Shown one piece after another: positions 3-50,261 of a stretch of DNA of 64,000 nt. Made by a program: the position numbers and the translations under genes. This DNA comes from Candidatus Krumholzibacteriia bacterium (GTDB lineage Bacteria > Krumholzibacteriota > Krumholzibacteriia > LZORAL124-64-63), in the NCBI GenBank assembly GCA_016744705.1, contig JADGDU010000014.1:22820-86819 (forward strand). The letters are read 5' to 3'. How positions within the stretch are numbered: position 1 is the first letter of the stretch; each line of letters begins with the position of its first letter. The notes beneath the pieces were generated by a model. The model saw only the letters and a list, made by a program, of their open reading frames with translations. It searched no databases and had not been told where the DNA came from.

Positions 3-161
3 GGGGTGCTAAACGACGATTGCTCGGCGAATTTCTATTGCTGTGATCTTGCGCTTGGGAATTGGCTGCTCTATGGCTCTCATGTCATTGACGATTCCGA
101 CTGTGATCCGGTGAGTACGGAAAGGCACAGCTTGGGGTCGCTGAAAGCCTTATTTCGTTAA
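3..161 (+). CDS. 3' end of an upstream gene, truncated by the window edge (frame 3 is open from nt 3 to a TAA at 159-161)
   Basis: This is the only frame without stops from the window edge. It is followed about 25 nt later by the hairpin at 183-202. There is no recognisable domain in the 52 aa. Confidence 0.25.
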   Translation, partial: GVLNDDCSANFYCCDLALGNWLLYGSHVIDDSDCDPVSTERHSLGSLKALFR

Positions 162-21827: not shown

Positions 21828-21850
21828 TAGTAGAATTGAGGATGGTGTTT

Positions 21851-35200: not shown

Positions 35201-36096
35201 CTTGTGGTTGTAAAGGTTTCAAAACCCGAGTGGGGATGGAAATGAACGACCTGGGTGGAGTCTGAAAAATAGATCCCTCCACTGGGTCCCATGCAAAGGG
35301 AAAGGCCTTGTTTTGTTTTGTCGAAAAACAAATGAGAAACAGAAAATCGTTCCGCCAGTTTCCGGCCTTGGTATCGAACCAGCCATTGGTCGCTGATGAC
35401 CCACAAGCTTCCACTGGAGTTGTCAGAACAGGCGCCCATGATTTGTCCATCCGGCAGTTCCAGGTCCAACTGGTAGGGCTTGTGGAGAGACTTCAAGTCA
35501 AGGGTGAACAATCCGGTTTTGGTGGATAACAGAAGGTGGGATCCATCCAGGGACAAGGAATGGGGGTGTAAATGAGGTTGGTCAAAGGAGAAGGTACTCC
35601 AAACCTCATTTTGCCATATCTGCAGGGGGCCATTATTGGAGGCGATGATCAAAGTTGTATGGCCTTTTTCATCGACCCAGGTTTTGAGTTCAACATTGGT
35701 GGAAAATCGACTGAAAGTATCAGGTTTGGGTAGTTTTTGCCAATTCCCGTCAACCAGTCGGGAAGCCTTGAAAGGCCAATGGATGTTGATCCACCAGACA
35801 CCCCCGCCATCATCGATGGATACCAAGCCGTCGCCGTTGGGGGCTGCGGGGTTCCTGGACGTGATTGTTTGCCATTTGATTCCATCGAAAACGCTCATGC
35901 CATTTCTAGTGCCAAACCACATCTTTCCCAAGGCATCCTGAGCCGCATTGTTGACCTTGTTGGATGCCAGACCATCTTGTTCGCGGAATGTTTGGATATG
36001 GTACCGCTGAGCCTGGACGGGGGCTGGTAAAATGGCTGCCAGGGTGGAGAGTAGGCAGCAAAGTATGGTTAGATTTTTAAGAGGTCCGAAAGGCAT
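32203..36096 (-). CDS. Hybrid sensor histidine kinase/response regulator with a very large periplasmic propeller-type sensor
   Basis: Signal peptide. About 700 aa of Reg_prop-type blades plus a Y_Y_Y-like region. One TM helix. PAS. HisKA (AHDFNNLL). HATPase_c (GTGLGLAIAHSI). C-terminal REC (DLVILDLTIPG). No DNA-binding output. Confidence 0.9.
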   Translation of the reverse strand: MPFGPLKNLTILCCLLSTLAAILPAPVQAQRYHIQTFREQDGLASNKVNNAAQDALGKMWFGTRNGMSVFDGIKWQTITSRNPAAPNGDGLVSIDDGGGVWWINIHWPFKASRLVDGNWQKLPKPDTFSRFSTNVELKTWVDEKGHTTLIIASNNGPLQIWQNEVWSTFSFDQPHLHPHSLSLDGSHLLLSTKTGLFTLDLKSLHKPYQLDLELPDGQIMGACSDNSSGSLWVISDQWLVRYQGRKLAERFSVSHLFFDKTKQGLSLCMGPSGGIYFSDSTQVVHFHPHSGFETFTTTSGLATDSGNHVMMDRENNIWISSTRGISKIMSRSLACYNSDHGLLNGEVGSVIERASGAMVLGQRGGLTFLDSIPHTISFDDNLPIYSRVTDLAEDSQGRLWIAANHKGLGLLQNDESIQWFNREHGLTDAVYAIMPHPEYGLFVGTLDGLYRQIGDRFERVPLPGLENAHNLNIRRLVPLSTGGFAIATRSFGLFLWKDGAFTSLPGKMQDGSNNVYTVFERPEGGLLVCTNSGLFRVQDNNLVRTTAPDPVIRRPIYGMVQDQSGQLWFGTDNGAIIWDGNQQTRLTANEGLLGSEINRDAFMITRDGNIWIGTDSGLSIFRPELDIPSTNPPVLSLSSMMINGVQYPPRHPVQITGPLASLVFKFDAPYFSSEEHLEFVAEITSQSDIDLPSYIMHWPGVLPMTNVPPGRFQVHVVARTPEGLESNIVTTPLITIIPPLMERWFIKALSGLAIALMLWLLFAYFSGRQYAQRLENEVRIQTRDLRKSEETARLESERLKSTLESISDGVVVIDGNNQVVLFNKAAEGIFLGSLPPKIGDYLEDILPVRALLNPDQKKQYKQLLKDPSSVRLKSQQLALYSGQNKTRWIELSGVPITGPSGGQVFAFRDITSRLQTEQNKHRSQKLESLGLLAGGIAHDFNNLLTIMMGNLSLAESTLITTAVENVQLEKIRLASRRAQNLTRQLLTFAKGGGPMRESTNLIPIIQDSVSFNLSGSNVQCQMDIPEDLSWAEVDAVQISQIIGNLVINARQAMSGGGQLEVSAQNSDTWPGIKSDHAFVVITIQDHGKGISESDQARIFDPYFTTREKGTGLGLAIAHSIAEKHDGRLTVESTLGQGSVFQLILPACDGSRQTSPNSTLDQTDQVTSGLNILFMDDEDEIRFLMSQMLDHLGHHWTGVPHGESAHAAYLQAQQQGRPFDLVILDLTIPGAMGGLETLAELRKINPKVKVIVASGYSDDPVMAHFQKFGFSGILNKPFAQDDLRRVLASLLGPESFTS

Positions 36097-37564: not shown

Positions 37565-38608
37565 TTAGTTTCTCCCGTCCCGATAGCCATCAAATGATCC
37601 GCTGCTTTCCACTTTCGCTGGAATGCCGCCACGCAGCAAGGGGTTGTTCTGAAGGCCCTGCATTACTTTTTCACTCTCTTGCAGAGCCGTGGTTGTCTCT
37701 TCCATGAGGACGGTGATTTCTGGGGTGGATTCACTCATGAAGGTCATCAGGTTTTGAAGTTCTGCCAGGGTTTCGGTGAGATGTTTGTAGAGTTTGGCGT
37801 CATCGTGGAAGAGCTGGGCGGCGCTGCCTTCGGAGCCCAGAAGAGTGGGAACCAAGCCATCAGGATCTTCGAAATTTTGGGACATGACAGTGAGACTTTG
37901 CAGCAGAGGCTTCATTCCTGCAGCCGTGCTATCCAACTGGGAAGCCAAATTTCCAATTTCCAAAACGGCTACATCCAGACCCTGGAATGAGCCGTCCACA
38001 GTGCGCAGCAGTCCGCTGTTCGGCTGGCTTGAATCACCGTTGAGTCTTTGGTCCAATCCCGTCAGGAGCTGGTTCAAGGTATTGATGACGGTACCAACCT
38101 GCGTGACTAAGGGAGGAACCGAAGCCAGAATGGTGGTCATTTCATCTCTTCGCTTGGGTTTGAGGACTTTACCCTGGGTCATCAGCGCCAATCCGGCTGG
38201 CATATCTGTGGAGGGGATAAGAGAACCTTCAGGCAAGCGGTCGCCGCCGTTGATTCCGGGATAGAGCACCAAACTGGAACCAAACCCCAGAGGCTGTACG
38301 GCCAACTCCACAACAGATCCGTCTACAATGCGGTCGGAAAATTCATGATAAATGGAGAAGATGACTGCGACTTTATTGTCTTCTTCAAGGGAAAGACTTT
38401 TGACTCGGCCGATGGCAAAACCGTGCAGCTTCAAATCGAGACCTGCGTTTAATCCTTCGGCGGTGCAAAACACACTTTTGTACTCAAGATCACTTTGGAA
38501 CCACCGCTTGTTGATGCCCACAAAACCCAGGGCTCCAACCAAAAAAAGTGTTCCGGCAAGCACAAACACTCCGACCATTTTATCGGAATGACGAAGCATG
38601 AATTTCAT
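37565..38608 (-). CDS. MlaD/MCE-family periplasmic substrate-binding protein
   Basis: N-terminal TM anchor. MCE core (FCTAEGLNAGLDLKLHGFAIGRVKSL...GSVVEL). Long coiled C-terminus. Confidence 0.8.
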   Translation of the reverse strand: MKFMLRHSDKMVGVFVLAGTLFLVGALGFVGINKRWFQSDLEYKSVFCTAEGLNAGLDLKLHGFAIGRVKSLSLEEDNKVAVIFSIYHEFSDRIVDGSVVELAVQPLGFGSSLVLYPGINGGDRLPEGSLIPSTDMPAGLALMTQGKVLKPKRRDEMTTILASVPPLVTQVGTVINTLNQLLTGLDQRLNGDSSQPNSGLLRTVDGSFQGLDVAVLEIGNLASQLDSTAAGMKPLLQSLTVMSQNFEDPDGLVPTLLGSEGSAAQLFHDDAKLYKHLTETLAELQNLMTFMSESTPEITVLMEETTTALQESEKVMQGLQNNPLLRGGIPAKVESSGSFDGYRDGRN

Positions 38609-38623
38609 GGCGGTGGCGGCTCC

Positions 38624-39364
38624 TTATTCAACAGGTCGACAGGCCAATAGAGATTGGATGTCGGGATGGGGAGAAAGCAGCATCTTATCGCTTTCACCCT
38701 GATCCAAAATTCGACCGTTGTGGAGAATCACCAGATGATCAGCCAGTTCGAAAATGGGCTGGTATTGGTTGCCTGCCAGGATCAAAGTGGTTCCCTTGGC
38801 ACGCAGAGAAACCAATTCATCCTTAATTTTCCGGGCCCAGGAGTTGTCCATGGTAGATGTGGGTTCATCCATGAACAAGGCTTCAGGCTCAGGAATGGTG
38901 GCACGCAGGAAAGAAACAAACTTTTTCTGCCCCTGAGAGATGTCCACCGGTCTCTTTTTGGTATCGACAGAAAAGTCGTACCGCTGTAGCGCTGCTTCAA
39001 TTCTCTGTTTTCTCTCTTGGGGGCGCAGGTGGGGAAATTTGGCGGTTAATGGAAGGTCCAAGTTGGTGGCCAGGTCCATGTTGGCCCATAGGGCTGCATC
39101 CTGGAAAACAAAGCCAGTGCGGGTTTGCATTTGGCGTAACTGCCTCTCAGAGAACGAATCGAGATTGCAATCATCATACAAAACCTGTCCTCTGGTGGCG
39201 GGGATGAGCCCGGCGGCTGTCTTCAGTAAAACACTTAGGCCAGAGCCAGAATTCCCAAGGATGGCGGTGATTTTCCCGGGTTGCAGTTCCAGGTTGATGT
39301 CCTGAAGAACGGGCTGTCCGCCCAACTCTACGGCTACATTTTGCAATTCGATGAACACGCTCAC
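38624..39364 (-). CDS. ABC transporter ATP-binding protein (MlaF-like)
   Basis: Walker A GNSGSGLS. Signature SQGQKKFVS. Walker B LFMDEPTS. The GTG start overlaps the MlaE-like stop (GTGA). Confidence 0.85.
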   Translation of the reverse strand: MSVFIELQNVAVELGGQPVLQDINLELQPGKITAILGNSGSGLSVLLKTAAGLIPATRGQVLYDDCNLDSFSERQLRQMQTRTGFVFQDAALWANMDLATNLDLPLTAKFPHLRPQERKQRIEAALQRYDFSVDTKKRPVDISQGQKKFVSFLRATIPEPEALFMDEPTSTMDNSWARKIKDELVSLRAKGTTLILAGNQYQPIFELADHLVILHNGRILDQGESDKMLLSPHPDIQSLLACRPVE

Positions 39365-40140
39365 CCCAGAAGGAAAAGAACAGTGATGACGGTGCTGGCC
39401 AGAATGCACAGAGTCATGCTGATGCCCAGAGATTGGATGGTTTTTTGAGGCACTTCAGTGACGGCGCGCTGGACTTGAAAGCCGTAATAAGTGGCCACGG
39501 TGGATAGGATTATTCCAAACACAAAACTTTTCAGGAGAGAAGATAGCACATCGCCGGCGCTCATGACCATAACCAGATTTCCCAGGTAATCGCCAATGGG
39601 AAGGCCGTGAATGAGGGAGGCAATCCAGCAGGATCCCAACAACCCGAAGAGGTTGAAATAGAGATTGAGAAAGACCATGGCCACGGTCACGCCAATGACC
39701 CGGGGCGCAGCCAGGTGGTACAGGGGATTGATGCCGGCAGCCACGTAAGCTTCCACTTCGTGATCGACTACCATGTTGCCCAGTTCGGTTGTGATGGCAC
39801 TGCCTGAGCGGGCGGCAATAATCAGGGCGGTCAGCAACGGTCCCAATTCCCGGGTTATTACCAGAATCAGGATTTTGTAGGTGAGTTCGCTCTGGCCAAA
39901 TTTGGGCAAAAGAGAAACACCCTGGATGATGACAGCCGCACCAATGCCCAAAGAAATAACGGCCAGAATGGGTAAAGCTTCCACGCCGGTGAAATAAACT
40001 TGGGAGATGAGGACCGGTGAAGTGATTTTTCGACGAAACAATAAAGAGAGAGATTCTCGATGGAGTACGATGGCGTAGCCCAAGGCAGAGAGGATGTTGT
40101 TCGTGGCATGCCGCATGTTTCGGCCCAGTGTGTTTAACAT
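39361..40140 (-). CDS. ABC transporter permease (MlaE-like)
   Basis: About 259 aa. Five TM helices. RELGPLLTALIIAARSGSAITTELGNM is the MlaE family block. Confidence 0.85.
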   Translation of the reverse strand: MLNTLGRNMRHATNNILSALGYAIVLHRESLSLLFRRKITSPVLISQVYFTGVEALPILAVISLGIGAAVIIQGVSLLPKFGQSELTYKILILVITRELGPLLTALIIAARSGSAITTELGNMVVDHEVEAYVAAGINPLYHLAAPRVIGVTVAMVFLNLYFNLFGLLGSCWIASLIHGLPIGDYLGNLVMVMSAGDVLSSLLKSFVFGIILSTVATYYGFQVQRAVTEVPQKTIQSLGISMTLCILASTVITVLFLLG

Positions 40141-40205: not shown

Positions 40206-41303
40206 TTAGGCTTTGGGAGCCCTCTTTTTAAACCGAGGAGAATTCCCCCACAATCCGTACCCAATTTTCTCGCCAATTCCAGCGATGCGTTTTTCCAGGC
40301 CCATGCGACTCTGCTCTGAGTTTTCGTCGAGACTGGGTTTACCGTCGTACAACTGATACGCTCGCCGGTGCTTGGGGTCCGTCACGTTGGGCATGATGAT
40401 GTTGGCTCCGGCCTGCAGCCCCAACTCCCGGCCCGTATCGCTTAAAGCCTGCAGGGCGGTGGTGGCGGCCATGTTGGCGTCGGGCAGAAGCAGGCGGGCG
40501 CAAGCCAGCATTTTGAGGCCCAATTGAAGTTGAGCGTCTTTGTTGAAGGTGTCCAGGTGGTGGGCTAACGGAGTGTCGCCGTGGGGAATGAAGGGGCCCA
40601 TGCCGATCATATCCACATCCAGTTCTTTGATGTAAAGCAAGTCGTCGGCAAGGTCGGCGTTGGTCTGGTCGGGTAAACCGATCATCACTCCTGTGCCCAC
40701 CTGGTAACCTTCGTTGCGCAAATCATCGAGGCATTGCAGGCGGGGGGCCCAAAGATGGTCTTCAGGATGATACTGGCGGTACAAATCCTGACGACTGGTT
40801 TCAAGCCGCAGCAAGTAGCGGTGGGCACCGGCTTGTCGCCACTGGCGAAGCACCTGGGGGCTTTGTTCACCAAGGGAAAGAGTGACGCCCAATTCACCAT
40901 TGGTGGCTTCGTGCAACTGGTTCAGGGCATCAGTGATATATTGGCTGTGGTTGTCGTTTTGGATCTCGCCCCCTTGCAACACCAATGAGCCATAATGGTT
41001 GTCGTGGGCCCAACGGGCGGCTTGCACAATCTCCTCTATGGAGAGGCGGAACCGGGGAACCTTGGGGTTTGATTTTCGGATGCCGCAGTAAAGGCAATCC
41101 TTTTGGCAGATGTTTGAAATTTCGATCAGGCCACGAAAGTAAACTACTGGCCCGACGTTTTTCTTTTTCACTTCATAGGCGGCGTGAAAAAGGGCTTCGT
41201 ATTCGTTTTCCTCGCTGATGTCCAGAAGGCGGATCAAATCGTCACGCTCGAGAGTCTGGCCCTGGGCAACATGTCCCAAAATGTCTTTGACCTGTTGGGT
41301 CAT
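40206..41303 (-). CDS. hydE: [FeFe]-hydrogenase H-cluster radical-SAM maturase HydE
   Basis: Cx3Cx2C radical-SAM motif CQKDCLYCG. Biotin-synthase-like architecture of about 365 aa. Operonic with hydF and hydG. Confidence 0.85.
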   Translation of the reverse strand: MTQQVKDILGHVAQGQTLERDDLIRLLDISEENEYEALFHAAYEVKKKNVGPVVYFRGLIEISNICQKDCLYCGIRKSNPKVPRFRLSIEEIVQAARWAHDNHYGSLVLQGGEIQNDNHSQYITDALNQLHEATNGELGVTLSLGEQSPQVLRQWRQAGAHRYLLRLETSRQDLYRQYHPEDHLWAPRLQCLDDLRNEGYQVGTGVMIGLPDQTNADLADDLLYIKELDVDMIGMGPFIPHGDTPLAHHLDTFNKDAQLQLGLKMLACARLLLPDANMAATTALQALSDTGRELGLQAGANIIMPNVTDPKHRRAYQLYDGKPSLDENSEQSRMGLEKRIAGIGEKIGYGLWGNSPRFKKRAPKA

Positions 41304-42523
41304 GATACCACCGAGGGCGATTCAAACGGAGCCATGGCCCGAGGCAGAATACCCAAACAAAAGGCAATGGCCAGTCCATAGTTGGTAGCCGGCACACCGG
41401 CTCGTCGGCAATGTCCCAGACGGCTTTGGATTTCCTGACGGTTCATGGTGCAGCCGCCGCAGTGGACCACCAGTTTATAAGGGGAAAGGTCGGTGGCAAA
41501 ATCGTGTCCCTGAACGGTGTCGAAGACCAAGGATCCGCCCACCGCTTCATTCAGCCAACGGGGGAGCTTGACGCGGCCGATGTCATCAGTCTCCACCGGG
41601 TGATGGCTACAGCTTTCGGCCACCAGGACCCGGTCGCCAGGTTGCAGGTTGGCAATGGCGCGAGCGCCGGCTACCTGAGATTCGAAATCGCCACGATGCC
41701 GAGCCATCAAGACCGAAAACCCAGTCATGGGGATGTCCTCGGGGACCATGGCGCTCACCTGAGCAAAAGCCTGGCTGTCGGTCACCACCAGAGCGGGCTT
41801 TTTCCGGAGATTGGCCAAAGCAGATTCCAGCTGAGTTTCTTTGACCACAAGGCAGCAGGAATCACCATCCAACAGATCGCGGATAGCGTTAACCTGGGGC
41901 AGAATGATTCGGCCCACCGGGGCTTCTTTGTCAATGGGAACCACCAAAATGGCTGTTTCTCCGGCGGGTACAAGGTCCCGTACCAGGGGCGGGGTTTTGG
42001 AGCGGCTCTGGGTGGCTGTATCGATAATGGCCAGCCGCAGATCATCAATGCCAGTGCCCCCCGTCACGGACGTGGCCACCCATTTCACTCCCAGCTCATC
42101 AAGCATTTTGGTCATGGCATCTGATGGTAATTCTTTGTCAGCCTGGTTGAGAACCACAATGACCGGGATGCGTCTTTCTTTCATTTCCTCCAGCAATTGC
42201 TCTTCGTGAGAGCCCCAGGCGTTGGTGGTCGTCACCAGCAACACCAACTCGCAACGATCAAGCATGGCCCGGGTTCGGTCCATGCGCAGTTTGCCCAGAT
42301 CACCGGTGTCATCAAGGCCTGCGGTGTCGATCAAAACCACAGGCCCGATGGGCTGCAACTCCATGGGCTTGCTCACCGGATCGGTGGTGGTGCCTGGAGT
42401 ATCGGAAACAATGGCTACATCCTGACGGGTCAGGGCGTTGACAAGGCTGCTTTTACCCACATTGCGCCGGCCATAAAGGCCAATGTGCAGGCGGAACCCG
42501 CGGGTTGCTGTTTGGCGTTTCAT
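41300..42523 (-). CDS. hydF: [FeFe]-hydrogenase H-cluster maturation GTPase HydF
   Basis: N-terminal GTPase (GRRNVGKSSL, DTAG). C-terminal cluster-binding CSHHP...HCGGC motif. Confidence 0.85.
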   Translation of the reverse strand: MKRQTATRGFRLHIGLYGRRNVGKSSLVNALTRQDVAIVSDTPGTTTDPVSKPMELQPIGPVVLIDTAGLDDTGDLGKLRMDRTRAMLDRCELVLLVTTTNAWGSHEEQLLEEMKERRIPVIVVLNQADKELPSDAMTKMLDELGVKWVATSVTGGTGIDDLRLAIIDTATQSRSKTPPLVRDLVPAGETAILVVPIDKEAPVGRIILPQVNAIRDLLDGDSCCLVVKETQLESALANLRKKPALVVTDSQAFAQVSAMVPEDIPMTGFSVLMARHRGDFESQVAGARAIANLQPGDRVLVAESCSHHPVETDDIGRVKLPRWLNEAVGGSLVFDTVQGHDFATDLSPYKLVVHCGGCTMNRQEIQSRLGHCRRAGVPATNYGLAIAFCLGILPRAMAPFESPSVVS

Positions 42524-42532
42524 GCATCGCTC

Positions 42533-43909
42533 CTAGCAGAAAACATCGCGACGGCCGGCACGGATCTTCTCCAGCATGACCTGAGCGCGGCGGCGAGGTT
42601 CGGGGTCCATGGTTTCCAGGGCGTTGGCGATGCTGAGCATACCGGCTTCCTGGGTTTCGGGTTGGGCGTAATCCATCAGATATTCCAGAAAACTGCTCAG
42701 GCCGTTGGGAGCGCAATGGGCTTTGATGTCGCCGGGTTTGGCCAGATCCATGAAGTCGGCTCCGGTGCGCCCGAGACGGTAGCAACCGGTGCAGAATGAT
42801 GGGATGTAACCCAGGCGGGCCACATCGGCCACCACTTCATCGAGAGAACGCACATCACCCAAGCTGAATTGTTCGGCGGTGTGTTTATCGGACGCAGAAT
42901 AGGCACCAGGATTGGTGCGGCTGCCGGCAGAAATTTGAGAGACACCGAGGGCAAAGGTTTCACGCCGAATGTCTGCGGTTTCCCGGGTGGACATGATGAT
43001 ACCTGTGTAGGGGACCATCAGCCGGAGAATGGCTACGATTTTGCGAAAGGCCAAATCAGACACCGGGTTGGGTGGGTTGCTGGCCAAATCGGCTCCGGTT
43101 GCGGGCTCCAGGCGCGGTACGCTGATGGTGTGTGGACCAAAACCGAATTCTTTTTCCAGGTGGCGAATGTGCTGGTGCAGGGCCAGCAGTTCAAATCGCC
43201 AATCAGCCAAGCCGAACAAGACACCAATGCCCACGTCATCAATACCTGCGGAGATGGCCCGATCCATGGCTTGCAGTCGCCAATCATAATCTGTTTTGGC
43301 CCCGCGCAGGTGCACCTTTGAATAAGTTTCACGATGGTAGGTTTCCTGGAAGATTTGGTAGGTGCCGATGTCGTGCTCTTTGAGCCGTTTGAAATCGGCT
43401 TCTTCCAGAGGAGCGACGTTTACGTTCACTCGGCGAATTTCTCCGCTGCCCCGTTTGACGGAGTACACGGTGTCGATGGCGCGTAAAATGTAATCGAAAC
43501 CATCGCGGGGGTAAGCTTCGCCCGCCACCAGAAGAATGCGTTTGTGACCTTCATCAACCAGAGCTGCGGTTTCGGAGGCAATCTCTTCCATGCTCAGGGC
43601 ACGGCGATTGAGGCCTCGGTTGCTGCTACGGAATGCACAGTAAGCGCAGTCATTTTTACAGAGATTGGAAACGTAAAGGGGGGTAAATAAGACCAAACGG
43701 TGGCCATAAATTTCCGCTTTGACATCGCGCGCTGCCCGGAAGAGTTCGCCCAGCAATTCAGGGTCACTAATATTGCAAAGAGCCGCTACGTCGTCGGCCT
43801 CCAGGCCTTCAAGCTTTCGGGCCCTGGCCAGGATTTCAGTAATATCGGATTCGCTCTTCTGTCCACCCCGTTGTAGGGATTTCTCGATGTTTCCTTCGTC
43901 GATTTTCAT
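42533..43909 (-). CDS. hydG: [FeFe]-hydrogenase H-cluster radical-SAM maturase HydG
   Basis: CKNDCAYCAF (Cx3Cx2C). ThiH-like core. C-terminal Cx2Cx22C (CTGC...KAHC). About 458 aa. Confidence 0.85.
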   Translation of the reverse strand: MKIDEGNIEKSLQRGGQKSESDITEILARARKLEGLEADDVAALCNISDPELLGELFRAARDVKAEIYGHRLVLFTPLYVSNLCKNDCAYCAFRSSNRGLNRRALSMEEIASETAALVDEGHKRILLVAGEAYPRDGFDYILRAIDTVYSVKRGSGEIRRVNVNVAPLEEADFKRLKEHDIGTYQIFQETYHRETYSKVHLRGAKTDYDWRLQAMDRAISAGIDDVGIGVLFGLADWRFELLALHQHIRHLEKEFGFGPHTISVPRLEPATGADLASNPPNPVSDLAFRKIVAILRLMVPYTGIIMSTRETADIRRETFALGVSQISAGSRTNPGAYSASDKHTAEQFSLGDVRSLDEVVADVARLGYIPSFCTGCYRLGRTGADFMDLAKPGDIKAHCAPNGLSSFLEYLMDYAQPETQEAGMLSIANALETMDPEPRRRAQVMLEKIRAGRRDVFC

Positions 43910-45075
43910 GAACTCTCTCCGCTGGGAACAGGTTTGTTTGAATGTCCGGTTCGGGACAAGGTGGCTGTGAAGGTTGTGCCCTGGTTTTCTTGGCTGGACA
44001 CGGTGACCCGGCCGCCGTTCAGATGCACCAGGCGCTGCATAATACTCAAACCCAGGCCACTGCCTTCAATGAGCCGGGTTTTGTCATTCTTTATACGTAC
44101 AAATTCGCCAAACAGGCGACCCACTTCTTCTTCGGTCATACCGATGCCGGTATCGCTGACACTGATAGTGACGTATTCCTCGTCGCTGTCCAACTTGATG
44201 AAAACCTGCCCACCATCGCTGTTGTATTTCACTGCGTTGGAAACCAGATTGTTGAGGATGATTTCGAGTTCGGAATAGACACCCTGCATGATAGTGCTGT
44301 TTGTGCATTCCGCTTCCAGGGAAATATTTCGACTTTGTGCTTGAGGTTGAAATGTTTCCATAACTTTTTCTACCAATTGAGCAGGGTCAACCTCAGTCAA
44401 AACCCGTTCTTTTTGGCGAGATTCAATGCGGGTCAAATCCAGCATATCGTAGATGAGTTTGCGCATGCCCTCGAGCCGTACCAGGCTGCGGCCGATGATG
44501 CGAGCGGTGGCCTCGGGGTTGTTGGCGGTGATGCCTTCATCAAGCAAACGAAGGTAGCCCTCCACGGCCCCCAGGGGCGCCTTCAATTCATGAGCCAAAA
44601 TCGAGAGGAACTCAAAACGCACCCGGTGTTTTTCCCCGGCCAGTTTGCGGGCCGTACGCTCCACCATCAAATGGCGGGACGCTTTCACCACCACTTCCTT
44701 CAACTCTTTGGGCGTGAAGGGCTTGGCCAGGAAGTCATAGGCGCCTTTTTTGGTGGCCTTGACGGCCATTTCCAGAGAGGCATAAGCCGTGATCATCACC
44801 ACCATGGTGGTGGATTTCTGGGCCTGCAACTCAGTCAGAATTTCCATACCTGTAACCCGGGGCATGCCATGGTCCAAAAGCACCAGATCAAAGTGATCCT
44901 GGGCCAAAATCTCTCTGGCCTCGAACCCATCTGTAGCCAACCGTATGTTCAAGGTGAAGGTGCCTTGGCCATGAGGTTCCGTGACAGTGAGGCCTTCCAG
45001 GGCCCGGGCCATGCCCGTGCGCATACCGACCTCATCGTCGGCAATTAAAACCTGTAGAACATGGTTGTCAGTCAT
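43906..45075 (-). CDS. REC-domain / histidine-kinase hybrid (receiver at the N-terminus, HisKA plus HATPase_c at the C-terminus), no output domain
   Basis: Start at the second ATG after AGGAGA. REC (LIADDE...LLDHGMP...AKPF). HisKA (LSILAHELKAPL). HATPase_c (GSGLGLSI). It overlaps hydG by 4 nt and the upstream sensor kinase stop by 8 nt. Confidence 0.8.
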   Translation of the reverse strand: MTDNHVLQVLIADDEVGMRTGMARALEGLTVTEPHGQGTFTLNIRLATDGFEAREILAQDHFDLVLLDHGMPRVTGMEILTELQAQKSTTMVVMITAYASLEMAVKATKKGAYDFLAKPFTPKELKEVVVKASRHLMVERTARKLAGEKHRVRFEFLSILAHELKAPLGAVEGYLRLLDEGITANNPEATARIIGRSLVRLEGMRKLIYDMLDLTRIESRQKERVLTEVDPAQLVEKVMETFQPQAQSRNISLEAECTNSTIMQGVYSELEIILNNLVSNAVKYNSDGGQVFIKLDSDEEYVTISVSDTGIGMTEEEVGRLFGEFVRIKNDKTRLIEGSGLGLSIMQRLVHLNGGRVTVSSQENQGTTFTATLSRTGHSNKPVPSGESS

Positions 45076-47095
45076 GACCATTCTCCTGTGCTTCCGGGTG
45101 CACATACTGAGGCAGAACAATGCTGAAAATGGTTCCCGTGGGACCACTCTTTTCATCGGTATTGGACTGCACGTTGATTTGGCCGCGATGCATTTTTACG
45201 ATGCCGTAACTGACGGCCAACCCCAAGCCAGTGCCTTTGCCTTGGCCTTTGGTGGTGAAGAAGGGTTCGAAAATTCGGCTCAGAATTTCTTCGGCTATAC
45301 CGCAGCCGGTATCAGCCACTTCGATCACCAAGGAATCTTCACTGGGGACGGTGACACTGATGCAGGTAGTGCCACCCTCTGGCATGGCGGCCTGGGCATT
45401 GTTCACGAGGTTGATGATAACCTGTTGCATCTGGGCCTGGTCCAGGTCGGCGCTGAGGTTTTCGTCATCCACTTTTAAGCAGATATTTTGGGTTGCCGGT
45501 GTGATGACACCGCGCAGACATTCCCGCAGAAAAGTCCCAATTTTTACCCGCTGCAATTCCGTTTTGTTCTCTCTGGAGAAATCAAGCAAACCGGAGACAA
45601 TGCCTTTGCAACGGTTGGCTTGTTCGGCGATGAGGGACAAATCGATGCCCAGCTTGGATTCGTGTCCGAATTCATCCTGAAGCAAGTGAGTGTAGAGCAG
45701 CACCACGCCCAGGGGGTTGTTCACTTCGTGAGCTATGCCGGCGGCCAACTGGCCCATGCTGGCCAGCCTTTCCGAGTGCATGAGCTGTTCCTGGGTTGTG
45801 GCCAATTCGGCGTTGGACGAATGAAGGTCGCCCACGGTGTTGCGCAGTTCGTCGATGACAAAGGGCAGACACATTTCGCTTTCGGCCATGCCCTTGTAGA
45901 TGGCCACGGCGTGTTGCCGGCAGGTGTCGTAACCGCAGGCGCGGCAATTCAATTCATCAGATGCCGTGATTTTTCCCAGACGGCGCAAGATGGCGTCAAT
46001 TTCGGCGTCATCAGGCTCGCGCAGTTTCAATTGGTCGGGTTCAAAGGACCGGCTCAGGTCCAGGTCATCAAGTTGGTTCATGTATTTGTACCAACTGCCT
46101 TTATTGCCAATGCGCTGGCGGTTGCCCGCATAGCGACTGATACGGGCACGGCGCCGGAAGAGGGGCTCGTCGGTGGTCATGCCCGCGCCCATGATGCAAC
46201 CTTTGCAGCATAGAATATCAAGCAATTCTGCATCCATATCACCAGAAGAAAATTCGCGCAGGGCTTCCGGGAAATCCTGACGGCCATCGGCAGTGACTAC
46301 ACTGCCGGTGGCCAGGTCTTCACTTAAGCCGGCAACCTGGACCATGCCTCGACTGAGGGGAAAAACGGCCCCCAGATTGGCGCGGGGGGCATCAAAATCT
46401 GCGGGTTTCACTTTGTTGGGATCCAGTTTCCTCCGTCGAATCAATTCATCCAGCTCATTGAAGGTGATGACGCAATCAATACGGCCATCTCCACTGGTGA
46501 ATGCAGCTTCGCCTTTTTTGGCCAGGCAAGGTCCGATAAATATAAGTTTGAGATCGGGACCATGCAGGTTACGCAGGGCACGGGCACTGGCGACCATGGG
46601 TGAGACCAGAGGCAACAGAGAAGAGCAAAGCTCAGGATGGTACCGTTGGACAAAAGTGACGATGGCAGGACACGAGGTGGCAATCCAGCGTTTGAGCGGG
46701 CCGTCTTCCACTAATTCGCGGGTGCGCTGGGCCACTAAATCTGCTCCAAAACCCACTTCGTGAAGAATGTGGAAGCCCAATTCTCTCAGCAGGCCGCCCA
46801 ATACTTTTTCATCAAAGTTGGTGAATTCGGCGGCAAAAGATGGGGCAATGGCCGCGGCCACCATGGTGTCGCCTGCTAAAAGGGTTTCAGCCATCTCCAG
46901 GGAATCGGCAGCCACTTTGGCTCCCTGGCTGCAAACCTGAACGCAGTTGCCGCAACCGATGCAGCGCTCGTGCATGACCATGGCCTGGCCATCTTCAATG
47001 CGAATGGCTTTGGCTGGGCATTCGCGTACACAGGTGAAACAGGTCCGGCATCGTTCGCCAATGGTCTGAACCAGAGTCACTTCTGAAGCTTTCAT
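45068..47095 (-). CDS. Sensory [FeFe]-hydrogenase-like H-cluster protein fused to a histidine kinase (2x[4Fe-4S] Fd, H-domain, Cx2Cx4Cx16C, HisKA, HATPase_c)
   Basis: Fd motifs [12 protein letters not shown] and [12 protein letters not shown]-cluster L1 (ATSCPAIV), L2 ([10 protein letters not shown]) and L3 ([12 protein letters not shown]). C384-x2-C-x4-C-x16-C409. H-box AHEVNNPL. N box NLVNNA. G boxes DTGCGI and GTGLGLA. Confidence 0.8.
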
Positions 47096-47748
47096 GCGCG
47101 GGCTTTCTCTTCAGTTTTAGCCGATGCGTAGAAGGCAACTCTCTCCAAAGACATCTGGATATCGTTGTTTTCTACGAAAACATGATTGGGTACCTGCAAA
47201 CGGATGGGAGTGAAGTTAAGGATGCTGCACACACCGGCGGCAACCAAACGTTCCGCTGCGGCTTGGGCTTCTTCAGGGGGCAGAGCCAGGATGGCAATAC
47301 AGACATGGGCTTCCCGCACCTGTTCTTCAAGGTTGGCGGCATCCAAAACCGGAACATCGTTGAGGTGTTTGCCAACCATATGTGGGTTGACTTCAAAAAC
47401 AGCCTTCATGTTCAGGTGGGGTTGGGTGGACTGAAAGTAGTGCAAAAGAGCTTGTCCCAAATGTCCGGCTCCCAACAGAACCACAGAAGTGGCCTGGGCG
47501 GTGCCCAGACAATTGACCACAGCCTGGGCCAATTCGGTGATGGAATAACCATGCTGGGGAGTACCGCTGGTGGGCACATTCATAAGGTCTTGTCGCACTT
47601 GAGATGCAGAAACACCAGCCATGACGGCCAGATCTCGTGAAAAAATCCGCTGGATTCCTTCTACACTCAATTGCTTGAGAACCCGGCGGTAAATGCTCAA
47701 ACGACCCACGGTGCGGGGATTGATCATGTATTTGGAATGTGTAACCAT
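47092..47748 (-). CDS. rex: Redox-sensing transcriptional repressor Rex
   Basis: ATG at 47748 after AGGAG. Winged helix (RLSIYRRVL). Rossmann fold (VVLLGAGHLGQALL). Its stop overlaps the downstream start (ATGA). Confidence 0.85.
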   Translation of the reverse strand: MVTHSKYMINPRTVGRLSIYRRVLKQLSVEGIQRIFSRDLAVMAGVSASQVRQDLMNVPTSGTPQHGYSITELAQAVVNCLGTAQATSVVLLGAGHLGQALLHYFQSTQPHLNMKAVFEVNPHMVGKHLNDVPVLDAANLEEQVREAHVCIAILALPPEEAQAAAERLVAAGVCSILNFTPIRLQVPNHVFVENNDIQMSLERVAFYASAKTEEKARA

Positions 47749-47771
47749 GGTGGACTCCTGTTTACCACTGA

Positions 47772-47788
47772 TGTTAATAAAATAACAA
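47772..47788. promoter_or_regulatory. Candidate Rex operator (TGTTAATAAAATAACAA, one mismatch from the inner 16 positions of the Rex-box consensus TTGTTAA-N4-TTAACAA) 24-40 nt upstream of the rex start
   Basis: Inverted repeat TGTTA-N6-TAACA read in the sequence just upstream of the rex operon. Confidence 0.35.
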
Positions 47789-48149
47789 GCATTCAACGCC
47801 ACAAAGGTAATCATTGAATTTTGAGGGTCAAGAATATTTTGTTATTTTTTTGACAGCCAAGATGCAAAGATTTTCAAGTTGTGTATTCCATTGTCAAATA
47901 GCCAGTTATGCAATTGTTTTGAAGTAATGCTAAAAATTGAAATCCGAGAAGCGTAATAATTTAATTGCACAATGGAAAGATGGTTTGGAGGCCAAATGGC
48001 CAAGGGTCTGGAGTCATGATTTATAGGGATGAATGTGCGGATGAGGGCAAGATTAACGCTAAGGACTCTGGGAAAAACCAAAGAACTGTCGTATTATTAA
48101 CGGGATATTTTTTTTTATTACAGGTCACTTAAAGAAGGGATCCTATTCC

Positions 48150-50261
48150 ATGTCTTCCAGCCTCATGCCAACTCCAAGACTGGATCAGGGCAGCCCTGAA
48201 ACCATGCGCCAAAATATCCGCAAATATTTCACTGAAACCTGGGAAATTTATGAAGAGTTATTTGAGGTTTTGGACTGTGACGAGGCATATTTTGCCAAAG
48301 CGGATCCACTGAGGCATCCCCTTATCTTCTATTTGGGGCATACAGCCACTTTTTTCATCAATAAAATGGTCTTGGCCAAGGTCATCAGTGAGCGGGTCAA
48401 CCCTCTGTTAGAATCAATCTTTGCCGTGGGCGTGGATGAAATGAGCTGGGATGATCTCAGCGATAAGAACTACGAGTGGCCAACCGTAGCCGAAGCCTGG
48501 GAATACCGAAAACAAGCCAGAGCGGTGGTGGAACAAGCCATTGACGAGATTCCTTTGAATATGCCCATCCAATGGAATGACCCCTTTTGGGTGATCATTA
48601 TGGGTATTGAGCATGAACGCATCCATTTGGAGACCAGTTCGGTTCTGATGCGCCAATTGCCCTTGGAAATGGTCCGCTCGGTGGAGAGATTTCCCTTGTG
48701 CGAAAACTCAGGGGATGCTCCCGCCAATGAAATGCTGGTTGTGGAGGAGGGCGTGGTTGTCCAGGGGCTGCCAGATAACCACTCGTTTTATGGGTGGGAT
48801 AATGAATATGGGCATTTGAAATCAGAGGTTTCTGCATTCAAGGCTACTCGCTATCTGGTCAGTAATGATGAATTTGAGGGCTTTGTGAAGGCCGGCGGAT
48901 ACCAAACGGAAAAATATTGGACGGAAGAGGGGTGGGCCTGGAAAATTTACAGTAAGGCAGAATTTCCCACCTTTTGGGTCAAAACCGGCGAAAAATCCTA
49001 TAAATTGCGTTGTTTGGCAGAAGAAATCGATATGCCTAAGGATTGGCCTGCCGAGGTCAACTATCTGGAAGCCAAGGCTTTCTGTAGTTGGAAAGCAGAA
49101 ACGACTGGCCAACCGGTGCGTTTACCGACGGAAGCAGAATGGTACCGCATCCTGGAATCGTCAACTCTGGATGGGAAGGAGCATTGGACAGGCCACAAGG
49201 CCAACATCAATTTGGCTCAAGGAGCTTCATCCTGCCCAGTGAACGAAAACAAGCAGGGCGATTTTTTCGACGTGGTGGGCAATGTCTGGCAATGGACTGA
49301 AACACCGATCAGCGGATTCCCCGGCTTCAAGGTTCACCCTCTGTATGATGACTTTTCCACTCCCACTTTTGATACCAGGCATAACATTCTCAAGGGTGGG
49401 TCCTGGATCAGCGCAGGCAATGAAGCCAATCCTTTTTCCCGTTACGCCTTCAGAAGGCATTTTTTCCAGCATGCGGGATTTCGTTATATCGAATCGGAGG
49501 CAGAAGTGACCATCAGCGATGACATCTATGAAACTGACGAATTAGTCGGGCAGTATTGTGAGTTCCATTTCGGCCAGGAATATTACGGAGTCCCTAATTT
49601 CCCCAAAGCAACAGCAGAAATTTGTGGGGAATTGATGAAGGGCAGAAGCTTCAAGCGGGCTTTGGATCTGGGCTGCGCCACCGGTAGAAGCACCTTTGAG
49701 TTGGCTCGGTTCTTTGACCATGTCACGGGCATCGATTTCTCCGCCCGCTTTATCCGCGTGGGGCATGACATGCAGAATAAAGGGCGTATCAAGTATGCCA
49801 TCCCCAGTGAAGGCCAACTGGTTTCCTATCATGAAAAAAACCTGGAGGAATTTGGCCTGGTGGGCACCGAAAATAAGGTGGAATTCTGGCAAGGCGATGC
49901 TCACAATTTGAAGCCGCAGTTTGATAATTACGACTTGGTTCTGGCCTGTAATTTGGTGGACCGGCTTTATAGCCCTGCCAAATTTCTGGAGCACATCGCG
50001 GGCCGCATCAACAAGGGTGGCCTGTTGGTTCTGATGTCCCCTTACACTTGGTTGGAAGAATTCACTCCCCTGGAAAACTGGCTGGGCGGGCGAAAAGTTG
50101 ATGGTGAAAACCGTACCACCCTTGATGGTTTTCACAGAGAACTGGAACCAGAATTTCGCTTATTGGGCGAGCCTCGGGATGTGCCCTTTGTCATCCGTGA
50201 AACCGCCCGAAAATTCCAGCACACCCTCAGTCAAATGACGGTATGGGAGAAACTGAAGTGA
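48150..50261 (+). CDS. ovoA: 5-histidylcysteine sulfoxide synthase OvoA (ovothiol biosynthesis): DinB-like, FGE-sulfatase and methyltransferase domains
   Basis: 703 aa. HxxxHxE iron motif (HERIHLE). FGE-sulfatase-like middle domain. C-terminal SAM methyltransferase motif I LDLGCATGRS. Confidence 0.85.
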   Translation: MSSSLMPTPRLDQGSPETMRQNIRKYFTETWEIYEELFEVLDCDEAYFAKADPLRHPLIFYLGHTATFFINKMVLAKVISERVNPLLESIFAVGVDEMSWDDLSDKNYEWPTVAEAWEYRKQARAVVEQAIDEIPLNMPIQWNDPFWVIIMGIEHERIHLETSSVLMRQLPLEMVRSVERFPLCENSGDAPANEMLVVEEGVVVQGLPDNHSFYGWDNEYGHLKSEVSAFKATRYLVSNDEFEGFVKAGGYQTEKYWTEEGWAWKIYSKAEFPTFWVKTGEKSYKLRCLAEEIDMPKDWPAEVNYLEAKAFCSWKAETTGQPVRLPTEAEWYRILESSTLDGKEHWTGHKANINLAQGASSCPVNENKQGDFFDVVGNVWQWTETPISGFPGFKVHPLYDDFSTPTFDTRHNILKGGSWISAGNEANPFSRYAFRRHFFQHAGFRYIESEAEVTISDDIYETDELVGQYCEFHFGQEYYGVPNFPKATAEICGELMKGRSFKRALDLGCATGRSTFELARFFDHVTGIDFSARFIRVGHDMQNKGRIKYAIPSEGQLVSYHEKNLEEFGLVGTENKVEFWQGDAHNLKPQFDNYDLVLACNLVDRLYSPAKFLEHIAGRINKGGLLVLMSPYTWLEEFTPLENWLGGRKVDGENRTTLDGFHRELEPEFRLLGEPRDVPFVIRETARKFQHTLSQMTVWEKLK

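Follow-up and report, generated by a model that had tools for sequence, protein, structure and literature searches.

A histidine kinase with an [FeFe]-hydrogenase domain carries a single Cys in L1

The window, a 64-kb stretch of DNA from an uncultured lineage, encodes on its minus strand a 675-aa protein that joins an [FeFe]-hydrogenase H-domain to a histidine kinase, and the L1 motif of this protein, TSCCPxW in group A enzymes, has only one Cys. The question is which Cys is gone, the ligand of the [4Fe-4S]H subcluster or the proton relay, and whether the gene encodes an enzyme or a sensor. The initial annotation of this DNA read L1 as TSCP, with the cluster ligand kept and the proton-transfer Cys lost, and took the protein for a slow sensor. 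The gene, hereafter the sensor gene, and its domains are as follows.

45068..47095, minus strand: sensor gene (ORF, 675 aa), two-[4Fe-4S] ferredoxin domain, [FeFe]-hydrogenase H-domain, C-terminal four-Cys motif, HisKA, and HATPase_c
46919..47059, minus strand: N-terminal two-[4Fe-4S] (F-cluster) ferredoxin domain, aa 13-59 (Pfam Fer4_10/Fer4_9/Fer4_7)
45869..45946, minus strand: C384-x2-C387-x4-C392-x16-C409, a putative extra [4Fe-4S] site directly N-terminal of the kinase dimerisation helices (Pfam PF04060)
45569..45757, minus strand: HisKA domain with the H-box H456-E-V-N-N-P-L (Pfam)
45107..45442, minus strand: HATPase_c catalytic ATP-binding domain (Pfam)

Pfam placed Fer4 at aa 13-59, Fe_hyd_lg_C at 79-304 (E = 3e-39), the PF04060 FeS domain at 382-411, HisKA at 447-509 (8e-13), and HATPase_c at 552-663 (5e-25). 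It found no PAS domain in the protein, whose C-terminal Cys motif runs straight into HisKA and HATPase_c. The AF2 model has a mean pLDDT of 84.6 with a confident H-domain, and Foldseek matched it to [FeFe] hydrogenases at E ~1e-20 with TM scores up to 0.68, which is agreement at the fold level only. Conservation was assessed in an alignment of the window protein with 119 homologues at 53-86% identity (A1, 120 sequences). In A1, C19, C22, C26, C45, C48, C51, and C55 of the ferredoxin domain never vary, and C16 is kept in at least 90% of the sequences; C384, C387, C392, and C409 are all invariant, as is H456 of the H-box (codon 45728..45730). The fusion to HisKA and HATPase_c is universal among these 120 nearest homologues and occurs in 52 of 150 diverse representatives that share 29-53% identity with the window protein (the distant set); Cx2Cx4Cx16C is present in 130 of 144 sequences from the latter. 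An identical Cx2Cx4Cx16C motif has been described in M2e and M2f sensory hydrogenases (PMC8163306).

The relay Cys is replaced by Ser and the cluster ligand is kept

The L1 motif and its two central codons are located as follows.

46658..46678, minus strand: L1 motif T140-S141-C142-P143-A144-I145-V146 (translation; the coordinates are exactly these codons)
46673..46675, minus strand: Ser141 codon, at the CpI C299 position
46670..46672, minus strand: Cys142 codon, at the position of CpI C300, the [4Fe-4S]H ligand

Translation of 46649-46690 on the minus strand confirmed a single Cys followed by Pro, with no CCP. We aligned the H-domain with four solved hydrogenases (CpI, TmHydA, TkHydA1, and HDCR HydA2) and the family profile with CpI and TmHydA. 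The alignments are gap-free within and after L1 and place A139-T140-S141-C142-P143 on CpI T297-S298-C299-C300-P301. Because they all run through the motif without a gap, the L1 difference is, by alignment, a Cys-to-Ser substitution at the C299 position and no deletion. The initial annotation was thus right about the retained ligand and the absent relay Cys, but the latter has been replaced by Ser141 rather than dropped. The CpI Trp303 position is Ile in the sensor, which therefore lacks the TSCCPxW signature of group A.

The literal T-S-C match to TSCCP invites another reading, the one that an observer with the sequence alone would make, in which one Cys codon was deleted from TSCCP (a gapped TSC-P) and T140-S141 correspond to CpI T297-S298. 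We give it practically no credence, as the pairwise, profile, and intra-family alignments rule it out. The pairwise and profile alignments stay gap-free for at least 25 residues beyond the motif, and the only indels nearby are a single-residue gap before A139 (pairwise with CpI, absent against TmHydA) and a deletion of 3-4 residues at R286 further upstream. Relatives that do carry CC, with ITSCCPAI (e.g., P0165), VSTCCPAV, or ISSCCPTI, likewise align with IATSCPAI without a gap, each column on its counterpart. In the family consensus, [AS]-[TS]-x-C-P, x is variable, so that the string TSC appears only where x is Ser; its identity with part of TSCCP is best read as a one-residue register coincidence.

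Cys142 is invariant, stands directly before an invariant Pro, and is flanked on both sides by gap-free alignment to CpI, TmHydA, TkHydA1, and HDCR HydA2, and we therefore assign it as the predicted cluster ligand, equivalent to C300; the single Cys does not occupy the relay position. Cys142-Pro143 is kept in 120 of 120 sequences of A1, where position 141 is Ser in 61, Thr in 38, Ala in 15, Asn in five, Pro in one, and Cys in none, so the L1 observation is neither a sequencing quirk nor a chance match, and no close homologue has TSCCP. In the distant set the same column holds Ala (42), Pro (26), Ser (25), Thr (24), Cys (10), Asn (6), and others. Among 50 diverse kinase-fused representatives, all scorable at this column, it is Pro in 16, Thr in 11, Ala in 10, Ser in five, and otherwise N, H, F, W, or L, never Cys. 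This spread contradicts the idea, which we considered, that Ser or Thr at the relay position is a functional feature conserved across all kinase-fused sensors.

The effect of such a substitution is known from group A enzymes, whose Cys-to-Ser variants retain the H-cluster while their H2 evolution falls by 98.7-99.998% and their activity moves toward H2 oxidation; the Hox/Hred potential of CrHydA1 C169S is -283 mV, up from -400 mV (PMC9563086). The variants CrHydA1 C169S, CaI C298S, CpI C299S, and CpII C169S have the same residue as the window protein at the same position beside the adt amine, and the potential rise and build-up of reduced states shown for the CrHydA1 (and CaI) variants (PMC9563086) are properties expected of a sensor. 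In these variants the remainder of the proton pathway, M353, and M497 are still in place, whereas the whole environment differs in the window protein, which makes the analogy only suggestive. Within the subclade of at least 53% identity, where 99 of 120 sequences have Ser or Thr at position 141, one could speculate, although we think it rather unlikely, that this residue was selected as a proton gate that is poor by design, instead of being a neutral substitute, and that, together with the clade-specific C-x2-C spacing of L3 (see below), it biases the H-cluster to H2 uptake, raises its potential, and prolongs the reduced state. Such a gate would determine how long the kinase signal lasts and what its threshold is, and the protein would be a natural equivalent of the C169S variant made by engineering.

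The group A proton pathway is missing

The replacement of C299 is accompanied by losses among the other residues of the pathway, which is the outcome predicted for the check that the initial annotation proposed. CpI E279 corresponds to R124 in the sensor (R, E, or A in A1) and S319 to L161 (A81/L35), and R286 falls in the 3-4 residue deletion. Only E282 has a match, E127, in a column that is not conserved in the family (R43/E29/K29). Across the family, the equivalents of the group A pathway appear variable and mostly non-protonatable. The annotation also stated, correctly, that pathway loss is reported for HydS-type sensory enzymes: in groups C and D neither C299 nor the group A proton pathway is conserved, the relay residue being A131 in TmHydS and A137 in TamHydS, both of which are slow (PMC8163306, PMC10055695, PMC10407848). 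In sensory enzymes, the relay position is Cys in 17%, Ala in ~43%, Pro in ~10%, and Ser in ~10%, and the M353 position is Gly in ~51%, Ser in ~32%, and Thr in ~17% (PMC10055695). The missing relay Cys and pathway are the published signature of sensory [FeFe] hydrogenases in groups C and D. The finding is correct but ordinary, and its discovery value is small, Ser at the relay position having already been counted in about a tenth of these enzymes.

Could the protein still be a genuinely catalytic hydrogenase that moves protons through Ser141 or an alternative pathway, with the kinase domain as an add-on? Ser is still able to hydrogen-bond the adt amine, the CaI and CpII Cys-to-Ser variants keep 14-16% of their H2-oxidation activity (PMC9563086), and TmHydS and TamHydS are measurably active through alternative pathways (PMC10055695, PMC10407848). 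We nonetheless regard a catalytic role as very unlikely. Position 141 is Ala, Asn, or Pro in 21 of the 120 aligned sequences, and kinase-fused proteins at greater distance have Pro, Ala, Phe, Trp, or Leu there, so there is no conserved relay at this site. Beyond the loss of the whole group A pathway, the protein has no partner electron-transfer subunit, its kinase fusion is shared by all 120 nearest homologues and 52 of the 150 diverse representatives, and it scores far under the NCBIfam cut-offs for group A (TIGR02512, 88.9 bits against 406) and B1 (TIGR04105, 172 bits against 450).

The sensor gene lies between rex and the H-cluster maturase genes

The neighbours of the sensor gene, all on the same strand, are listed below in order of transcription.

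47092..47814, minus strand: rex, redox-sensing repressor Rex (Pfam; NCBIfam NF003995, 202 bits against a cut-off of 126)
43906..45156, minus strand: REC-HisKA-HATPase_c hybrid kinase, hereafter REC-HK (Pfam)
42533..43909, minus strand: hydG, H-cluster radical SAM maturase (NCBIfam TIGR03955, 492 bits against 312)
41300..42523, minus strand: hydF, H-cluster maturation GTPase/scaffold (NCBIfam TIGR03918, 530 bits against 326; Pfam HydF_dimer, HydF_tetramer)
40206..41303, minus strand: hydE, H-cluster radical SAM maturase (NCBIfam TIGR03956, 334 bits against 255)

The stop codon of rex overlaps the start of the sensor gene (ATGA), and the likely start of the REC-HK hybrid, near 45075-45081, overlaps the sensor stop. 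The genes form a tight operon in the order rex–sensor–REC/HK–hydG–hydF–hydE, with hydG, hydF, and hydE translationally coupled to the sensor operon. A Pfam search of the large ORFs across the 64-kb window found no second Fe_hyd_lg_C protein, i.e., no catalytic hydrogenase for the sensor to regulate, and the operon contains no DNA-binding response regulator. The Rex operator TTGTGAAnnnnTTCACAA, searched with up to 3 mismatches, has only two matches in the window, both far from the operon (4.25 expected by chance), and none in the upstream region 47815-48149; there is therefore no evidence for Rex autoregulation with a Firmicute-type box.

Of 82 related loci, 69 have a HydA/BfuA-type gene beside the sensor gene and 72 have a REC-HK hybrid there; rex is a neighbour in 46 and hydG in 31. 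The REC-HK orthologue comes after the sensor gene in 72 of the 82. The window and its nearest genome relative (L003) are without an adjacent hydA/bfuABC, the sensor gene standing directly between rex and REC-HK-hydGFE. The TSCSP motif of the neighbouring HydA genes in related loci looks unusual, but it is already documented and was set aside as a novelty.

The cofactor pocket retains the anchors of the [2Fe] subcluster

The remaining H-cluster motifs were located by alignment to CpI.

46508..46534, minus strand: L2 motif G188-P189-C190-L-A-K193-K194-G-E196, aligned to CpI M353-P-C355-x-x-K358-x-x-E361
46181..46213, minus strand: L3 motif L295-C296-C297-K-G-C300-I-M-G-A-G305

CpI M353 corresponds to G188, which is invariant in A1 along with C190, K193, K194, and E196, and M497 corresponds to L295 (Leu in 119 of 120). 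L3 has the spacing C297-x2-C300, both Cys being invariant, where CpI has C499-x3-C503, so that M353, M497, and the C-x3-C spacing of group A are all absent from the sensor. The four H-cluster Cys, C142, C190, C297, and C300, are all invariant. The residues that in group A enzymes anchor the CN ligands of [2Fe] are invariant or nearly so: A84, P85, S165, P166, K193, and E196 are invariant, and S86 and F245 are each kept in 119 of 120. Their CpI equivalents are K358/E361 for K193/E196, P231/S232 for P85/S86, S323/P324 for S165/P166, and F417 for F245.

Kinase-bearing forms have been labelled both C1 and C3 (PMC11406978), and the same paper explicitly doubts that group C1 has an H-cluster or responds to H2, since it had difficulty in locating the canonical P1-P3 motifs. 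This doubt, the shortened L3, and the replaced M353 and M497 would suit a domain that holds [4Fe-4S] clusters only and no [2Fe], like eukaryotic Nar1/NARFL-type proteins, so that the kinase senses O2 or a redox state (the ferredoxin or NAD(P)H pool) rather than H2 and the lost relay Cys is a symptom of a degenerate site. A relay position that distant kinase-fused proteins can fill with Pro, Phe, Trp, or Leu, a window without a catalytic hydrogenase, and the co-transcribed NADH sensor Rex point the same way. We consider this improbable, however, for three reasons. K193/E196, P85/S86, S165/P166, and F245, for which no role is known other than holding the CN ligands of [2Fe], vary little or not at all in 120 sequences; hydG, hydF, and hydE are coupled downstream and recur beside homologues; and TmHydS and TamHydS, with the same kinds of substitution, bind a functional H-cluster (PMC8163306, PMC10055695). 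From the invariance of the [2Fe] anchors and from the coupled hydGFE genes, we argue that the kinase-fused proteins probably do carry an H-cluster, which runs counter to the doubt of one recent paper (PMC11406978).

A putative H2-sensing kinase of the group C type

Taken together, the sensor gene most probably encodes an H2-sensing histidine kinase with a group-C-type sensory [FeFe]-hydrogenase input module. Like sensory group C and D proteins, it keeps the four Cys ligands and the CN anchors, lacks C299 and the group A pathway, has a two-[4Fe-4S] domain and Cx2Cx4Cx16C, and carries a small residue (Gly) at M353. Its HisKA and HATPase_c domains are a C-terminally fused signal-transduction module as in group C, where this is PAS in TmHydS and a kinase in the C1/BfuT type. 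An adjacent group A hydrogenase for the sensor to regulate, presumably another group C feature, was not found among the large ORFs of the 64-kb window and is present in 69 of 82 homologous loci. The "slow sensor" of the initial annotation fits the kinase fusion, the Cx2Cx4Cx16C motif, and the operon context; a sensor rather than an enzyme is what we infer, since the literature that we found describes no kinase-fused member with biochemical characterisation, a demonstrated H-cluster, or an H2 response. Counting against H2 sensing are the C-x2-C spacing of L3 in place of C-x3-C, the window without a catalytic hydrogenase, the operon without a DNA-binding response regulator, and the published doubt about group C1 (PMC11406978).

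Among the closest known systems is TmHydS of Thermotoga maritima, a putative sensory hydrogenase of group C (M2f; PMC8163306, PMC10055695). Like the window protein, it has an N-terminal domain for two [4Fe-4S] clusters, all four Cys ligands in its H-domain, and Cx2Cx4Cx16C on the C-terminal side; in both, the relay Cys299 is replaced (Ala131 in TmHydS, Ser141 in the window protein), the group A pathway is absent, and M353 is Gly. They also share a genomic link to bifurcating-type hydrogenase genes, seen for the window sensor in its homologues only. TmHydS ends in a PAS domain, whereas the window protein has HisKA and HATPase_c and no PAS; the M497 position is Ser267 there and Leu here; and in our alignment L3 reads C-x2-C in the window protein but C-x3-C in relatives of the PAS-bearing length.

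TamHydS of Thermoanaerobacter mathranii, a putative sensory hydrogenase of group D (M2e), likewise has C299 replaced (Ala137), no group A pathway, and Leu at M497, with the same N- and C-terminal cluster motifs and E282 retained. Group D differs in having Ser or Thr at M353, in lacking a signalling domain as a fusion, and in an alternative pathway of its own with conserved E252/E289; the window protein, with Gly at M353 and a kinase, departs from group D on the first two points.

The HydDB C1 "histidine-kinase-linked" proteins and BfuT (group C3; sub-type V Bfu clusters of Hydrogenedentota and Calditrichota; PMC11406978) share the fusion of an H-domain to histidine-kinase domains and the departure from canonical P1-P3 motifs noted in that paper. 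In most genomes the gene is directly downstream of bfuA/hydA (69 of 82 related loci), and it is here that the window and L003 differ. Several related loci come from Hydrogenedentota MAGs, including CSSed162cmA_463 (L012), which is named in PMC11406978, and the two bfuT copies described in Bacteroidota clusters (PMC11406978) are reproduced in L064, L073, L074, L076, L077, and L081.

A functional parallel exists among regulatory [NiFe] hydrogenases. HoxBC/HupUV with the kinase HoxJ/HupT is a slow, hydrogenase-derived H2 sensor whose coupled kinase controls hydrogenase expression. Its metal site and fold are unrelated, and its sensor and kinase are separate polypeptides, in contrast to the fused window protein. 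The comparison with regulatory [NiFe] hydrogenase has also been made in PMC8163306.

In the mechanism that we propose, HydE, HydF, and HydG from the same operon would install the [2Fe] subcluster, and H2 would bind and be slowly split at the sensor H-cluster. With no fast proton exit and a more positive cluster potential, turnover would be minimal and the reduced state persistent. Electrons could then reach the accessory clusters, among them the Cx2Cx4Cx16C cluster directly before the kinase helices, whose redox change would switch autophosphorylation of H456. The signal may pass to the adjacent REC-HK hybrid and in the end adjust how strongly hydrogenase or maturase genes are expressed, in parallel with the NADH sensor Rex.

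In annotation, the name hydrogenase should be avoided in favour of hydrogenase-like H2/redox sensor kinase, and metabolic reconstructions of this uncultured lineage should therefore leave the gene out of their H2-producing capacity. The fused sensor kinase would also be a convenient system for showing signal transmission by an [FeFe] H-cluster, and the kinase-fused subgroup is spread over at least 590 species-level genomes in many phyla.

Domain organization and operon of the sensor gene

The L1 motif under study lies in the second gene of a compact run of six on the minus strand, in which start and stop codons overlap at four junctions and the fifth is a 9-nt gap. The operon reads in this order:

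47092..47814 (-), rex, above the curated NCBIfam cut-off
45068..47095 (-), sensor ORF of 675 aa, containing L1 at 46658..46678
43906..45156 (-), REC-HisKA-HATPase_c hybrid (REC-HK)
genes 4 to 6 (-), hydG, hydF, and hydE, each above the curated NCBIfam cut-off

Pfam assigned the following domains to the sensor:

aa 13-59, two-[4Fe-4S] ferredoxin domain
aa 79-304, [FeFe]-hydrogenase large-subunit H-domain (Fe_hyd_lg_C, E = 3e-39)
aa 382-411, small 'FeS' domain, C384-x2-C387-x4-C392-x16-C409
aa 447-509, HisKA
aa 552-663, HATPase_c

The Cx2Cx4Cx16C motif has been described for the sensory M2e/M2f subclasses, with exactly the spacing found here (PMC8163306). An AlphaFold2 model, built with an alignment of the window protein and its homologues as input (A1; 120 sequences of 53-86% identity and one architecture), had a mean pLDDT of 84.6, with the bulk of residues 50-350 above 90. 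In Foldseek searches its N-terminal half matched CbA5H, DdH, TmHydA, TkHydA1, and CpI (E ~1e-18 to 1e-20; best TM 0.68, normalised to DdH); the histidine kinase ZraS was the match for the C-terminal part. Scores against the catalytic NCBIfam models were far under the cut-offs (group A, 89 bits vs 406; B1, 172 bits vs 450). The sequence is new, its nearest database entries being 85-86% identical, and it belongs to an already known kind of protein, the kinase-bearing, putatively sensory form. Such forms are catalogued as group C1, in which canonical P1-P3 motifs are difficult to recognise and H2 sensing has been doubted for that reason; the gene of another, 'BfuT' (group C3), adjoins bfuA in Hydrogenedentota and Calditrichota (PMC11406978).

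The sensor family was found in at least 590 species-level genomes, every one a MAG, and its phyla include Planctomycetota, Hydrogenedentota, Krumholzibacteriia, Fermentibacteria, Myxococcota, Bacteroidales, Lentisphaerae, Neomarinimicrobiota, and Thermoleophilia. Among 82 related loci, a HydA/BfuA-type gene adjoins the sensor in 69, mostly directly upstream, and the REC-HK hybrid comes after it in 72; companions also include rex (46), hydG (31), hydE (22), and hydF (18). One locus, L012, is from the same MAG that PMC11406978 takes as its example, and the two bfuT copies reported there for Bacteroidota were seen again. Unusually, the window and L003, the closest relative at genome level ('bacterium Bsp_15', 74% identity), have no hydA between rex and the sensor and share the order rex-sensor-RECHK-hydGFE (40206..47814 (-) in the window). 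A scan of the large ORFs across the 64-kb window turned up no catalytic hydrogenase; given this and the lack of hydA in the operon, the maturase genes here cluster with the sensor alone.

The REC-HK hybrid overlaps the sensor stop codon in the window (45068..45081) and in two related loci (L001 and L003), and starts 450-590 nt further downstream in many others. In L002 a separate 129-aa receiver gene lies in this gap (L002:4408-4797), suggesting that one relay component was lost in the clade to which the window belongs. We also extracted L1 motifs from the HydA-type genes of more than 60 related loci, including L001:5276-7066 (-). Those adjoining sensors mostly read [MLFI]TSCSPGW, not TSCCP (63 of 71 motif matches), which by position puts Ser at the cubane ligand C300; their L2 and L3 are canonical. 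The TSCSP variant is mentioned in eLife 2013 (PMC3787301) and mSystems 2024 (PMC11406978).

Serine at the position of the proton-relay cysteine

The initial annotation had noted a single Cys followed by Pro in L1, and translation of the 14 codons at 46649..46690 (-) confirmed this:

46658..46678 (-), L1 codons T140-S141-C142-P143-A144-I145-V146

It had also proposed that the relay Cys is missing and the cluster ligand kept. In phmmer alignments with four different solved hydrogenases (TmHydA 7P5H, TkHydA1 8A6T, HDCR HydA2 7QV7, and the CpI variants 6GLY/6GLZ), no gaps occurred from A139 to at least 25 residues past the motif, and A139-T140-S141-C142-P143 fell on T297-S298-C299-C300-P301 of CpI. 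An HMM built from the sensor family aligned with CpI and TmHydA fragments in this register too, and two-Cys relatives in the wider superfamily (P0165, ITSCCPAI; P0198, VSTCCPAV; P0214, ISSCCPTI) match IATSCPAI column for column. These three lines of evidence indicate that, as aligned, Ser141 replaces the relay Cys299 and Cys142 corresponds to the cubane ligand Cys300. Both parts of the proposal thus stand, as a substitution with nothing deleted; the alternative that L1 arose by deletion of one Cys, against which the gap-free alignments and the register of the two-Cys relatives speak, is hardly credible. In no alignment did the single Cys occupy the relay position with another residue as cluster ligand. 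Read in this register, the 'TSC' likeness to canonical TSCCP is a coincidence; x varies in the family pattern [AS]-[TS]-x-C-P.

In A1, C142 and P143 are invariant (n=120) and position 141 is S61/T38/A15/N5/P1; no homologue carries TSCCP, Cys at 141 being found in 0/120. An exhaustive search (3191 matches at E up to 1e-3) supplied 150 distant representatives of 29-53% identity, whose relay column reads A42/P26/S25/T24/C10/N6 and others. The 50 scorable kinase-fused representatives have P16/T11/A10/S5 plus N, H, F, W, and L, with Cys in 0/50.

The rest of the active site

We mapped further residues by CpI numbering from the phmmer alignments, with family counts from A1 columns:

CpI E279: R124; family R50/E38/A18
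CpI E282: E127; family R43/E29/K29
CpI R286: within a 3-4 residue deletion; no family count
CpI S319: L161; family A81/L35

The initial annotation had asked whether these residues are also substituted: E279 and S319 are, R286 is deleted, and E282 is kept at a position variable in the family. These states indicate that the group A proton pathway as a whole is absent. The ligands C190 (C355), C297 (C499), and C300 (C503) are invariant in A1 (n=120), as are the cofactor-binding A84-P85 (A230-P231), S165-P166 (S323-P324), K193 (K358), and E196 (E361); S86 (S232) and F245 (F417) are present in 119/120. CpI M353 corresponds to an invariant Gly188, and M497 to Leu295 (119/120). L3 departs from the CpI spacing:

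46181..46213 (-), L3 motif LCCKGC, aa 295-305, C297-x2-C300 (canonical in CpI, C-x3-C)

C-x2-C occurs in 51 of 52 kinase-fused representatives, and C-x3-C is nearly confined to non-kinase, PAS-length relatives (53/54 cases). We found no description of the C-x2-C deviation in the cited literature on these hydrogenases. An additional Cys296, adjoining C297, is present in 113/120 of A1.

The main alternative is a redox sensor bearing only [4Fe-4S] clusters, as in Nar1; the altered L3 spacing and the lack of a local hydrogenase among the large ORFs of the window would suit it, but the invariance of the residues that anchor [2Fe] and the coupling to hydGFE make it unlikely.

Comparison with sensory hydrogenases and a proposed mechanism

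In groups C and D, which are putatively sensory, neither C299 nor the group A pathway is conserved (PMC8163306, PMC10407848), in agreement with the initial annotation, which had linked HydS-type enzymes to a lost catalytic proton pathway. The relay position is Ala131 in TmHydS and Ala137 in TamHydS, in contrast to Ser141 here; of the HydDB sensory sequences, only 17% have Cys there, ~43% Ala, ~10% Pro, and ~10% Ser, and the M353 position is Gly, Ser, or Thr (PMC10055695). Ser at the relay position, the absent group A pathway, and the fused HisKA/HATPase_c support the earlier interpretation of a slow, putative sensor rather than an enzyme; a catalytic role finds poor support and is very improbable.

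For this putative H2 sensor, HydE, HydF, and HydG of the operon would presumably equip the H-domain with its [2Fe] subcluster, and H2 would be split slowly at the H-cluster. With no route for protons to leave, the reduced state may persist and come into equilibrium with the accessory clusters, among which the Cx2Cx4Cx16C cluster would be the obvious transmitter to H456; in the AlphaFold2 model it directly precedes the kinase helices (helix 410-431, then DHp helices from 444). Engineered Cys-to-Ser variants on a group A scaffold keep the H-cluster, evolve H2 at 0.002-1.3% of wild type, and have their bias moved toward H2 oxidation; reduced states build up in the CrHydA1 and CaI serine variants, and the Hox/Hred potential of CrHydA1 C169S is up from -400 to -283 mV (PMC9563086). 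By analogy, such properties would fit a sensor role. Since many relatives have Ala, Pro, or a bulky hydrophobic residue at this position, a tuned relay is, judged from sequence, a less likely role for Ser141 than a tolerated filler.

Other genes in the window

The true rex start is probably an internal Met around residue 23 of the annotated ORF, because alignments to the NCBIfam Rex models begin at residues 21-31. The 335 bp upstream (47815..48149) are AT-rich and contain no match to the Firmicute Rex box with up to 3 mismatches allowed. Further genes are:

48150..50261 (+), 703-aa DinB_2 + FGE-sulfatase + SAM-methyltransferase protein, divergent from the rex-sensor operon
37565..40140, Mla-like ABC transporter cluster, between hydE and the hybrid sensor listed next
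32203..36096 (-), 1297-aa hybrid sensor with Reg_prop beta-propeller repeats, PAS, HisKA, HATPase_c, and a C-terminal receiver
16916..19945 (-), 21836..24190 (+), and 25993..27900 (+), three large secreted-type proteins with C-terminal FlgD_ig or Por_Secre_tail (T9SS-like sorting)
62110..63192 (+), 360-aa protein with two NosL-domain stretches, at the window edge

The architecture at 48150..50261 (+) is one that we take to be OvoA (ovothiol biosynthesis), which would place an oxidative-stress thiol pathway beside an anaerobic, predicted H2-sensing operon. The 1297-aa hybrid sensor, 4 kb past hydE, is a further large signalling protein of the orphan type. NosL is the copper chaperone of N2O reductase. 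The T9SS-like tails of the secreted-type proteins fit an FCB-type or related uncultured lineage; one of these proteins has PGA_cap, one has CotH kinase and LTD, and the third gave weak MtrC/cytochrome c7-like multihaem matches, each under its Pfam cut-off.
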